Below are positions 725 through 2,081 of a DNA stretch of 24,124 nucleotides, piece after piece. How positions within the stretch are numbered: the first letter of the stretch is position 1; each line of letters opens with the position of its first letter. A model generated the notes under the pieces. The model had not been told where the DNA came from, ran no database searches, and saw only the letters and a program-made list of their open reading frames with translations. The DNA is taken from the UHGV virus genome UHGV-0149432. One strand, given 5' to 3'. Source of the stretch: a virus. The position numbers were made by a program, and so were the translations under genes.

Positions 725-794
725 CTTTTCTCCCTAAATTAACGGTATTAGTAGTTTAACGCTGATTATGTGGATTGAAACCAGCGCTATGAAA
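725..794 (-). promoter_or_regulatory. proximal phoP promoter / 5' UTR remnant and probable prophage attL junction region
   Basis: Only 70 bp separate the integrase stop (795-797) from the phoP start; minus-strand sequence TGGTTTCAATCCACATAATCAGCGTTAAACT...AGGGAGAAAAG resembles a PhoP half-site, -10-like element and SD. Confidence 0.4.
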
Positions 795-2081
795 TTAAAT
801 GACTTTTTTCATACTCCCTCGCCCTTGGGGGCGTCCTGGAGGCAGTGCTGTCGGCATCTGATTGTTCAGCATGTTGACCTGATCCTGGTTCATATCACCA
901 ATCCACTTGGAGTAAACCTCGTATACCATCCGCGCATCTTCATGTCCCATCTGGCTGGCAATGAACGACGGGGTCGCTCCGGCCATCAGCGTCCAGCAGG
1001 CATATGTGTGACGCGACTGATATGGATTGCGCTCACGTATACCTGAAAGTTTAGTCCCACGTTTCCAGCCATACGAAATCGAGTCCTTGGAAAAGTAACC
1101 GCCTTTCGTTGACGAGTATGTTGTCGGTGAAAAAACGAAGCGAAGATATTGCTGCTCAGTTTTTCCGATCTCACGATGATGAAACTGAATTTCCTGTTTT
1201 GGACTGTTCCCAGTGATTTCGTATTGCTCCAGCAGAGCATCATGAGCAGGTTTCAGCAACGTTATCGTCCTTATCCCGGCATCTGTTTTAGGGGGTACAA
1301 ATACTTGCTTGTTCGTCAAATTTCTGGATACGTGGATTTCACCTTTTACCAAATCAATATCTTCCCATGCCAGTGCGCATATCTCGCCCGGCCTCATCCC
1401 TGTATGTACCGCAATAATGATGATTAATGCCTGGCTACGGGGAAGGGCGGCTATCAGTGCCTGGTACTCATGAAGTAAAAGTGGGTCGGGATCATTTTTA
1501 GATAACTTGAGTCGCGACACTCCTTCATAAGGAGCATGCAATATAAACTGGCTTCGGTTTGCAAGCTTCAGCATTTCTGATAAAACAGCCATCTGTTTAT
1601 TGACTGTTGAGGGCGCGCGCCCATTTTTGATGCGGTTTGGTATTGAAGGGTTGAAAACTTCCCCGGTCAGGAGTTCTTTGCGGTAATTCAGAATATCTGC
1701 GTGCTGAATATCAACCAGCCGTGTGTTCTCGCCCACGACTCGTTTCAGGGTGTTAACGACTGATGTGATGGATAGCAAAGTGGCTTCAGATACCTCCAGT
1801 GACTTTGTATCTGTAAAAAAATCACTCAGTTCTTTGAATGTGGAGATCCGTTTTGTGGACGAAAATTTCTTAAGAGCTTTTGATTCCGGGAAACGATCTG
1901 CGTAGTCGAACTTACCGAGTTGTATCTCACTCACAATTGCTGCGCGCAGATTGCCCGCTTTTTTAATGTTGCTACTGTTGACAACCCAACCCTGGAGAAC
2001 TTCGCGGCAACGAATGCCGCGATAGATAAATGTGATCCTGATTTTTCCGTTATGCAGTTCAACACCAGTCGGGTATTTCAT
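795..2081 (-). CDS. int: phage integrase, tyrosine recombinase with N-terminal arm-binding domain
   Basis: 428-aa ORF; N-terminus MKYPTGVELHNGKIRITFIYRG typical of arm-type DNA-binding domain; C-terminal catalytic region with RHTYACW...GHEDARMVYEVYSKW (His/Arg/Tyr); terminal prophage gene, followed by xis. Confidence 0.9.
   Translation of the reverse strand: MKYPTGVELHNGKIRITFIYRGIRCREVLQGWVVNSSNIKKAGNLRAAIVSEIQLGKFDYADRFPESKALKKFSSTKRISTFKELSDFFTDTKSLEVSEATLLSITSVVNTLKRVVGENTRLVDIQHADILNYRKELLTGEVFNPSIPNRIKNGRAPSTVNKQMAVLSEMLKLANRSQFILHAPYEGVSRLKLSKNDPDPLLLHEYQALIAALPRSQALIIIIAVHTGMRPGEICALAWEDIDLVKGEIHVSRNLTNKQVFVPPKTDAGIRTITLLKPAHDALLEQYEITGNSPKQEIQFHHREIGKTEQQYLRFVFSPTTYSSTKGGYFSKDSISYGWKRGTKLSGIRERNPYQSRHTYACWTLMAGATPSFIASQMGHEDARMVYEVYSKWIGDMNQDQVNMLNNQMPTALPPGRPQGRGSMKKVI

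Follow-up and report, generated by a model that had tools for sequence, protein, structure and literature searches.

A defective lambdoid prophage of Citrobacter koseri integrated between the PhoP box and the -10 hexamer of the phoP promoter, and a candidate replacement promoter module within its integrase gene

In some cases of lambda-type (Campbell) site-specific integration, the phage restores what it interrupts, be it the 3' end of a tRNA gene or that of icd (e14 and phage 21), and the gtrABC serotype-converting prophages of the P22, SfV and SfX type integrate at tRNA genes. Other prophages act as regulatory switches ('active lysogeny'), such as Listeria phi10403S in comK. In enterobacteria, Mg2+ homeostasis, virulence and resistance to antimicrobial peptides and polymyxin are under the master regulator PhoPQ. 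In our literature searches, no published description emerged of a prophage in the purB–phoP interval or at the phoP promoter. Here we analyzed a stretch of viral DNA of 24,124 nucleotides (UHGV-0149432; hereafter, the window), positions 725–797 of which are the attL junction of an approximately 24-kb defective lambdoid prophage in Citrobacter koseri.

The genes int, phoP and phoQ all lie on the minus strand (Table 1), in the common orientation that had been predicted from the window. phoQ begins at the last base of phoP and encodes a protein of 487 aa with PhoQ_Sensor, HAMP and HATPase_c domains, as read in the identical loci L002–L011 and L042. PhoP scored 475 bits against the NF008078 cut-off of 336, and phoP was 100% identical between empty-site and lysogen C. 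koseri genomes. The stop codon of int (TAA, read from window position 797 to 795) and the start of phoP at 724 are separated by exactly 70 bp (725–794), placing the terminal gene of a prophage about 70 bp upstream of phoP, as originally predicted. A search of the int–phoP region against Rfam matched no family.

The protein identical to that encoded by int carries the Pfam domains PF12167 (Arm-DNA-bind_2) and PF00589 (Phage_integrase); its matches to NCBIfam tyrosine recombinases fell below the equivalog cut-offs, and no phage record was similar to int at the DNA level. The closest characterized integrase is IntR of the E. coli prophage Rac (Rac-SA53; 49.6% identity over residues 2–418 [97%], E = 1e-128), and identity to the integrases of Rac-SA53 and PHB10 was 49–51% over 95–97% of the length. 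The two systems share their layout: in Rac also, xis and int stand at the prophage end, int is co-oriented with the target and lies about 50 bp upstream of it, and the core is at the 5' end of the target. However, the target of Rac is the 5' part of the ttcA gene and not a promoter.

Table 1. Features of the window around attL and at the attR end.
Feature	Position	Strand	Remarks
phoQ, 5' end	1..50	-	partial, runs off the window; start at window position 50
phoP, response regulator, 224 aa, intact	50..724	-	NF008078 PhoP equivalog, E = 2e-143
Host phoP 5' leader, unambiguous; SD GGGAG at 730-734	725..752	-	same in L002, L009 and L011; unlike the phage side of attR
att core, 19 bp; minus strand ACATAATCAGCGTTAAACT	753..771	-	holds the phoP P1 -10 CATAAT (770->765) and the inferred start region
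attL phage arm, from core to int stop	772..794	-	departs from the empty site at 772
int, Rac IntR-like tyrosine integrase, 428 aa, terminal prophage gene	795..2081	-	
Candidate arm-type Int site CGCCCCCA in the C-terminal coding region of int	826..833	-	YGCCCCYA motif
-10-like TATATT, candidate internal promoter towards phoPQ	1540..1545	-	48 nt downstream of the box
PhoP-box-like site in int, phoP direction TCAACAgtcaaTAAACA, reverse orientation	1594..1610	-	one mismatch to KGTTTA-N5-KGTTTA
Excisionase (xis), precedes int	2081..2296	-	phrog_539 excisionase, E = 1e-22; Pfam DUF1233
gtrC-like (21431-23131) and gtrB (23118-24074)	21431..24074	-	cargo next to attR; gtrA just outside the window

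The junction was placed by aligning empty C. koseri sites (L002, L009 and L011) with attL in the window and attR in L012. The 19-bp core was found in direct repeat, at 753–771 for attL and at L012 5279–5297 for attR, and in single copy in the three empty sites. At the core edges, attL reads tccACATAAT..ACTact (window), attR gcaACACAAT..ACTgcg (L012) and attB gcaACATAAT..ACTact (L002); position 768 within the core is polymorphic, being T in the window and C at attR and in other lysogens. L012 and L042, which belong to one contig, showed 0 mismatches to the window over 7007 and 3581 nt, respectively. The junction is a structural feature confirmed against empty sites, and not a statistical pattern. 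The alignment bore out much of the original prediction: the core lies within the 70 bp, between the int stop and phoP; int is the terminal prophage gene; attR lies just beyond gtrA, 318 bp upstream of its start; and purB with the remaining native upstream region is displaced, purB being 170 bp upstream of phoP in the empty conspecific sites (and likewise in E. coli). The 70 bp had, however, been taken as retained host DNA throughout, whereas the alignment divided them into host leader (725–752), shared core (753–771) and phage arm (772–794), leaving at most 47 bp to the host. The phage arm was conserved beside phoP in every lysogen, in all genera.

In its short core duplicated at attL and attR, the prophage resembles the Campbell type, and its arms bear a repeated motif that may mark arm-type Int sites. 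This motif, YGCCCCYA, occurs as four direct repeats in the attR arm (L012 5403–5452) and once in the attL arm; the whole window has only three copies, and attR arms of other species also carry it. Every viral contig extending past int proved to be an integrated attL; searching the viral contigs for the exact attP pattern of a free phage gave 0 matches, as did an exact core+NNNAAT pattern scan of the genome contigs. A sib-like hairpin across the core and attR arm (TTAAACTG...CAGTTTAA) was considered and rejected, its stability not being above that of shuffled sequence (z = -0.86).

The native C. koseri phoP promoter, as seen in the empty sites, consists of the PhoP box GGTTTAcgaaaTGTTTA, 12 nt and CATAAT. 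Such a direct box, 12 nt ahead of the -10, is what has been described for phoP as architecture I, and the region from -52 to +5 suffices for PhoP-dependent transcription (Zwir 2012, PMC3335776). The core coincides with the -10 hexamer and start region of this PhoP-activated promoter, P1, and integration cuts P1 between the PhoP box and the -10. Because the junction lies at the -10 hexamer, phoP is left with no more than the -10, the start region and the SD; the PhoP box, on which autoregulation of the promoter depends, is lost. Architecture I was present in the empty sites and at attR (GGTTTAcgaaaTGTTTA, 12 nt, CAYAAT) and absent next to phoP in the window, where no PhoP box was found within 2 mismatches; a substitute box was also sought in the phage arm beside the core, and none was found within 2 mismatches. 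The PhoP box and a copy of the -10/start region are now at attR, approximately 24 kb away, and are directed into gtrABC. Autoregulation of phoPQ is conserved across Enterobacteriaceae and is regarded as a core feature of the regulon, and deletion of the box in Salmonella mimics a phoP null mutation in low Mg2+ (Perez 2009, PMC2650801).

An entire integrase lineage, present in four genera, specializes on the phoP P1 core as its target. Members of the lineage (84–99% identity), which were found in Citrobacter, Enterobacter, Lelliottia and Scandinavium, adjoined phoP in every contig long enough to tell: phoP lay about 70 bp downstream in 16/16 genome loci with a lineage int or int remnant, and likewise in 49/49 viral contigs extending past int. 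Among 5,426 E. coli genomes the lineage was absent (best match, 68% identity over a third of the query), and the E. coli phoP core region differs from this core by one deletion and one substitution. A widespread phage lineage uses the -10/start region of the autoregulated phoP promoter as its attachment site. As a result, in C. koseri, the C. freundii group, the Enterobacter cloacae complex, Lelliottia and Scandinavium, strains that carry the prophage or its scar have a rewired phoP promoter. As in active lysogeny, the prophage occupies a host regulatory locus, so that its presence or excision would change the expression of a host regulator; unlike in active lysogeny, the prophage in the window lacks immunity, replication and most tail genes, and many copies of the lineage are fixed scars.

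Two candidate sources of phoPQ transcription were found close to the junction. A -35-like TTCATA (793->788) in the phage arm stands 17 bp from the retained CATAAT and together with it gave 9/12 matches in a promoter scan, although TTCATA by itself is about a 1-in-9 chance event and the scan returned no more sites than in shuffled sequences. Moreover, because the int–phoP gap contains no terminator-like site, transcription of int may continue into phoPQ. No sigma-70-like promoter was found inside or upstream of int.

A third candidate lies within int itself. Here, a PhoP-box-like site in reverse orientation precedes a -10-like TATATT by 48 nt (1610–1540), inside the 30–58 nt that characterize architecture V. 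Natural reverse-box PhoP promoters of this architecture have spacings of 48 nt in mgtC and 37 nt in pagK (Zwir 2012, PMC3335776), the former equal to that of the predicted module; they usually have two boxes, whereas one is evident in int. The mismatched half-site is TGTTGA. By chance, approximately 0.4 sites within 1 mismatch are expected in 24 kb, and sites within 2 mismatches numbered 6 against 5.1 expected; in the 1.5 kb upstream of phoP, the site at 1594–1610 was the only one, with no second box within 2 mismatches. The box was exact in 67 of 76 unique int sequences, in which the longest invariant run of the gene spans TATATT, and codons 156–170 had the lowest synonymous-site entropy of the whole int (0.248 versus a mean of 0.805). 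Other possible sources of this low synonymous variation are a further overlapping signal and a mosaic segment exchanged recently. No box was present at the homologous position in Rac-SA53, PHB10, Tritos, an Stx1 phage or the Photobacterium and Sodalis relatives, all of which integrate elsewhere; in this respect Rac-type int genes differ from int of the phoP lineage.

In the intact prophage, the candidate internal promoter is about 816 nt from phoP. A leader transcribed from it would be long and largely untranslated and could be Rho-prone, and a weak terminator-like hairpin lies between the module and phoP (1115–1099). Next to the box is a 12-bp GC palindrome (1611–1622), which could be a mechanistic hot spot for deletion end points. 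An antisense (plus-strand) promoter of architecture I built on the int box in direct orientation was rejected because no acceptable -10 lies at the required 12 or 21–23 nt downstream. Neither the module in int nor the fact that the site is the dedicated target of an integrase lineage had been visible to the original prediction.

We then turned to decayed copies of int. The first sample of remnants was biased, as the search for loci had been seeded on the peptide TVNKQMAV, which corresponds to the box region; retention was therefore re-tested on contigs ascertained by the 42-bp attL scar alone. This sample held 33 contigs with full-length int, and the block 1612–1540 was present in 28/28 assessable remnants. 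These remnants showed at least 15 different deletion architectures, with no end point entering the block, although many of the 28 belong to a few repeated types. In pseudogenised remnants, the half-sites and -10 were changed at 3/144 positions versus 55/424 for the spacer and N5 (Fisher p = 5e-5, in a test that ignores kinship among remnants that are not phylogenetically independent); the 5' half of the spacer was also conserved. The distance from box to TATATT was kept at 48 nt, or was 37 nt in L034, and the int box was the sole PhoP-box-like site in the 1.5 kb upstream of phoP in remnant genomes. One C. koseri remnant (L010) lacked the block, yet its phoPQ was intact.

These observations suggest that the phage not only splits the phoP promoter but also supplies replacement promoter elements for phoPQ, a reading that we regard as evenly balanced, the replacement function being predicted from sequence. 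TTCATA of the attL arm with the retained CATAAT would give PhoP-independent basal transcription of phoPQ. The int module (reverse PhoP box, 48 nt, TATATT) resembles the PhoP-activated class of architecture V, and phosphorylated PhoP bound there would activate transcription running across the 3' portion of int and on into phoPQ, by which positive autoregulation would be restored. During prophage decay the module would be kept and brought nearer to phoP by deletions, so as to become, in several lineages, the only PhoP-box-like site upstream of phoP. In its wider form, which we put forward tentatively and hold slightly less probable than not, the explanation describes temperate phages specialized on the phoP promoter: a PhoP-activated promoter encoded in int re-creates autoregulation, the native promoter captured at attR places cargo (here gtrABC, for predicted O-antigen modification) under PhoP, and after decay the module is domesticated as the sole PhoP box controlling phoPQ in several Enterobacter, Scandinavium and Citrobacter lineages. 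As in Campbell-type integration, phage sequence would keep the target locus functional. However, the element interrupted here is not coding sequence but regulatory, an activator site, and instead of copying the DNA that was displaced, the proposed substitute has another architecture and lies in the int frame about 0.8 kb away.

The original prediction, in which the 70 bp looked like the proximal phoP promoter and SD, was partly supported, in that the -10, start region and SD are kept. Taken to mean that a functional native proximal promoter leaves regulation essentially unchanged save for possible read-through, it is nevertheless highly improbable, because P1 requires the PhoP box, and this box, overlapping the -35 position, has been replaced by unrelated phage sequence; the alignment ends host identity at 771 and contradicts an intact native promoter within the 70 bp. 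The constitutive promoter P2, which in E. coli lies further upstream than P1 (PMC3750022), would by analogy be displaced in lysogens as well. We also consider it unlikely that the block 1612–1540 is a PhoP-independent cis element for phoPQ, for instance an anti-silencing site or a promoter that is constitutive or under some other control, with no positive feedback. Its retention and conservation would fit such an element equally well, given that PhoP binding is deduced from the letters of the site, and the conserved 5' half of the spacer is unexplained by a PhoP box and -10 alone. However, conservation centres on the -10 and the two hexameric half-sites, with N5 variable; the 48- and 37-nt spacings equal those of known reverse-box PhoP promoters; and no sigma-70-like -35/-10 pair was found in the block, as expected of an activator-dependent promoter and not of a constitutive one.

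Plain disruption, to which we give the same low probability, would mean that autoregulation is lost, that phoPQ relies on TTCATA-17-CATAAT and/or read-through from int, and that the block serves the phage (by protein or RNA constraint, or as a mosaic segment), its presence in remnants reflecting shared ancestry and a deletion hot spot. The hybrid promoter-like site, the gap without a terminator-like site, the GC palindrome beside clustered deletion end points, the intact phoPQ of L010 and the few repeated types among the remnants are all in accord with this. It leaves unaccounted, however, why the same 73 bp were spared in each of at least 15 distinct deletion architectures and why the motif is missing from relatives integrating elsewhere, and conservation confined to the half-sites and -10 after pseudogenisation cannot be put down to protein constraint. 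Furthermore, lack of the PhoP box is very harmful to Salmonella at low Mg2+, yet prophages and scars with intact phoPQ are widespread. If the int box does work as a PhoP-activated promoter, a mobile element would have exchanged one of its host's regulatory inputs for a non-homologous equivalent concealed within a coding sequence, and this would document how phage DNA can come to serve as the promoter of a core regulator; PhoPQ dynamics, colistin heteroresistance and O-antigen modification could then vary among strains of clinically relevant species with the state of the locus.

The prophage measures approximately 24.0 kb from attL to attR and is incomplete: its RecT is truncated, the interval from 3.9 to 5.5 kb contains no genes for a repressor, Cro or replication, and the gtr genes come after the major tail protein, whereas related prophages of 37–53 kb exist. 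At its far end the order is purB, attR, gtrA, gtrB and gtrC on one strand in L012–L016, with Glycos_transf_2 and GtrA_DPMS_TM domains in the expected order; GtrB was below the NCBIfam equivalog cut-offs, and the third gene (566 aa) had no family match. The gtrA-gtrB-gtrC cassette at a prophage end beside the att site is shared with the P22, SfV and SfX type, but here the cassette stands directly downstream of the captured host PhoP-activated promoter, the gtr genes following the displaced PhoP box with no terminator-like site between attR and gtrA. An attR carrying the PhoP box was found in three further contigs from other hosts, and lineage members in other hosts carry different genes at the attR end, in either orientation.

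Consistent with the original prediction, which also gave the gene coordinates correctly, the open reading frames of int, phoP and phoQ were co-oriented on the minus strand of the window. PhoP scored 475 bits against an NCBIfam equivalog cut-off of 336, and the integrase, which contained Arm-DNA-bind_2 and Phage_integrase domains, was 49-51% identical to the Rac-SA53 and PHB10 integrases across 95-97% of its length.

Coordinates of features in the window
Feature	Position	Strand	Remark
xis (excisionase gene)	2296->2081	-	adjoins int
int, 428 aa	2081->795	-	Rac IntR-like tyrosine recombinase
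int-phoP gap, 70 bp	794->725	-	
phoP	724->50	-	NCBIfam equivalog match
phoQ start	after phoP at window edge	-	
RecT	2640-3272		truncated
Q-like antiterminator gene	7388-7765		
Rfam isrJ match	7781-7857	+	Hfq-binding sRNA
Major tail protein	20595-21404		
566-aa gene in gtrC position	21431-23131	-	

An exact-sequence look-up of PhoP retrieved conspecific contigs, some with and some without the insertion; one of the empty-site genomes, AP023452, is Citrobacter koseri MPUCK001 (PMC7729419). Empty sites had 170 bp between the end of purB and phoP, and this interval contained GGTTTAcgaaaTGTTTA, 12 nt and CATAAT, about 48 nt upstream of the ATG. The Salmonella phoP promoter has architecture I, in which a direct PhoP box lies 12 nt upstream of the -10 and overlaps the -35 position, and its region from -52 to +5 suffices for Mg2+-regulated, PhoP-dependent transcription (PMC3335776). 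The predicted geometry of the empty-site interval is that of architecture I.

The other prophage end was located by a gtrB look-up. Because the loci on the attR and attL sides (L012 and L042) share one contig and showed 0 mismatches to the window across 7007 and 3581 nt, respectively, L012 shows the window's own attR. Comparison of attB (gcaACATAATCAGCGTTAAACTact), attL (tccACATAATCAGCGTTAAACTact) and attR (gcaACACAATCAGCGTTAAACTgcg) defined a 19-bp core at 753-771, with host DNA at 725-752 and phage DNA from 772 onward. Alignment with an uninterrupted phoP upstream region thus placed the host/phage boundary at 771/772, and the prophage was found to end at int with its core inside the 70-bp gap, as had been proposed. 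The direct repeat sought beyond gtrA was the attR core, at L012 5279-5297, with the gtrA start 318 bp downstream. The claim that the 70 bp were retained as a proximal promoter held only in part: the phoPQ side keeps the -10, the probable start region and the SD, but phage arm makes up 23 bp, and the crossover, as read from the sequence, is in or beside the -10 hexamer (770->765). Everything from the PhoP box upstream now lies about 24 kb away, at attR. E. coli phoP has a constitutive P2 promoter further upstream (PMC3750022), and by analogy the displaced DNA would include P2. No PhoP-box-like sequence was found within 2 mismatches near phoP in the window, and the native promoter is not retained but split at its -10. 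We regard both the mapping and the targeting of this site across the lineage as practically certain.

One core base was polymorphic (window 768, the third minus-strand base of the -10; L012 5282). The window's attL reads CATAAT, which is host-like, and its own attR reads CACAAT, a pattern compatible, in the window's lineage, with strand exchange on the 5' side of the polymorphic base. At attL, CACAAT was present in every other C. koseri lysogen and remnant, which means that most C. koseri lysogens carry a weaker -10 before phoP.

The phoP site is specific to one integrase lineage. Among GTDB contigs (one genome per species), phoP lay about 70 bp downstream in 16/16 loci with int (84-88% identity) or an int fragment. 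The hosts included Citrobacter werkmanii, C. braakii, C. pasteurii, C. portucalensis, C. youngae, C. meridianamericanus, Enterobacter mori, other Enterobacter, Lelliottia wanjuensis and Scandinavium. The same arm, core and phoP were present in 49/49 IMG/VR contigs reaching past int, and three more attR junctions from other hosts consisted of purB, PhoP box, 12 nt, CATAAT-core and phage arm. In E. coli, 5,426 complete genomes yielded no copy of the gene, the best match having 68% identity across one third of the query; relative to the core, the corresponding E. coli region has one deletion and one substitution. In Rac-SA53 (L127 595-1931), intR is likewise terminal and co-oriented with its target ttcA, about 50 bp upstream, and the annotated att lies inside the 5' part of ttcA; because of this shared layout, the wider integrase family seems generally to target gene 5' ends. 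We found no paper on a prophage in the phoP promoter. In Citrobacter braakii ATCC 51113, a second int fragment lay 11-18 kb from the full-length int-phoP on the same contig and carried an attL-like scar piece (window-equivalent 799-752), which suggests tandem or successive integrations at the phoP site.

Candidate arm-type sites with the sequence YGCCCCYA numbered four in the attR arm, as direct repeats 105-165 bp from the core (L012 5403-5452), and one in the attL arm (826-833, int 3' end). They recurred in attR arms of other hosts (L124-L126) and are probably arm-type Int sites. In the C. koseri int remnant L010, the GCCCCCAGGAC unit was tandemly duplicated. An inverted repeat of 8 bp, TTAAACTG...CAGTTTAA, extends across the core into the attR arm (L012 5282-5335) and is expected in attP and attR only; as RNA, it did not exceed shuffled sequence in stability (z = -0.86).

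Several elements could drive phoPQ after the split. A hybrid promoter would do so, with TTCATA from the attL arm and, 17 bp downstream, the CATAAT kept on the phoP side. This site has 9/12 matches and is the sole promoter-like site in 500-1300, where the scan gave no excess of sites over shuffles; a correctly spaced match of at least 4/6 has a probability of about 1 in 9, and the TTCATA motif is family-conserved, yet abuts the int stop codon. Read-through from int would also transcribe phoPQ, and no terminator-like site was found in the int-phoP gap; no sigma-70-like promoter was found for int, and loss of the prophage regulatory region bears against this route. Alternatively, an unexpected module inside int would act as a PhoP-dependent promoter reading to phoPQ. 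In the phoP direction, window 1610-1594 is TCAACAgtcaaTAAACA, a reverse PhoP box with one mismatch, followed after 48 nt by TATATT (1545-1540). Architecture V promoters are defined by a reverse box lying 30-58 nt upstream of the -10; the distance is 48 nt for mgtC and 37 nt for pagK, and at such positions even the box of phoP is functional (PMC3335776). Compensation by the phage through this putative int-embedded promoter is, in our moderately confident estimate from the comparative evidence, the most likely mechanism.

Constraint on the module was evident in 76 unique full-length int sequences: synonymous-site entropy was lowest at codons 156-170 (0.248 vs a mean of 0.805), TATATT fell within the longest fully invariant nucleotide run, and the box was exact in 67. 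Relatives integrating elsewhere had TV(N/D)xY at the box position, with at least 3-4 mismatches to a PhoP box. In pseudogenised remnants, the half-sites and -10 were changed in 3/144, compared with 55/424 for N5 and spacer (Fisher p = 5e-5, phylogeny ignored), and the 48-nt spacing was indel-free except in L034, where loss of 11 nt (one helical turn) left 37 nt. Because the first set of remnants was seeded on the peptide TVNKQMAV, and hence biased to the box region, sampling was repeated on metagenome contigs scanned for the 42-bp attL scar alone. The 68 contigs comprised 33 with full-length int, 28 remnants, 3 remnants cut by the contig end and 4 that were too short; window 1612-1540 was kept in every remnant (28 + 3). 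The scar and genome sets together showed at least 15 deletion architectures, with 5' truncation limits at 1612, 1615, 1616, 1619, 1620, 1630, 1648, 1652, 1668, 1669, 1686, 1742, 1758, 1765, 1829, 1931, 1955 and 1982 and internal deletions starting at 1540, 1526, 1471, 1449, 1446, 1438, 1390, 1374, 1360, 1352, 1278 and 1266. None of these enters the block, which a single 5' truncation would spare with a chance of about 0.35 if limits were uniform along int. L034, L036, L037, L039 and the metagenome types have lost both prophage and attR, and their 1.5 kb upstream of phoP contains no PhoP-box-like site other than the int-derived box. Conservation of phoPQ autoregulation is reported for 10/10 enterobacterial species examined, and Salmonella deleted for the PhoP box behaves like a phoP null when Mg2+ is low (PMC2650801); a selective pressure for the module would follow from these observations.

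Several points temper this reading. One 1-mismatch box match in 24 kb is not improbable alone, only one box is evident in the module, and the C. koseri remnant L010 is without the block. The leader in the intact prophage would be about 816 nt and possibly Rho-sensitive; recurrent deletions shortening the block-phoP distance fit such a problem and are no proof of it. Remnants cluster in repeated types with common ancestry. Directly upstream of the box lies a perfect 12-bp GC palindrome, GGGCGCGCGCCC (1611-1622), on which many remnant 5' boundaries (1612-1630) fall, and it may attract deletion end points. Overall, we consider this a new variant of site-specific prophage integration with proposed target restoration; no published description of it was found.

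The attR junction holds a complete native P1 (upstream DNA, box, CACAAT as -10, and start region in the core) pointing into phage DNA. Because P1 is intact, gtrA lies on the same strand and no terminator-like site was found in the attR-gtrA interval, it is plausible that the window phage expresses its gtrABC O-antigen modification cassette under PhoP control. The interval also has a phage promoter-like site, TAAACA-18-TATAAT, and gtr at this end is not family-wide, other members having different genes in either orientation. The 566-aa gene matched no NCBIfam or PHROG family and may encode a new type-specific O-antigen glucosyltransferase.

The prophage spans about 24.0 kb (772 to ~24796; attR lies outside the window). 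It is defective, though int and xis are intact, since RecT is truncated and immunity, replication and tail genes are lost: no immunity or replication genes, repressor or cro were found between the recombination and nin regions, and gtrC follows directly after the head genes and the major tail protein, with later tail genes missing. Related prophages of 37-53 kb exist, and GCA_032192095.1 carries a version of this element cut down to about 11 kb. The isrJ match (55.5 bits; gathering score, 37) directly follows the Q-like antiterminator gene, a position at which the leader RNA of a late promoter would be expected.
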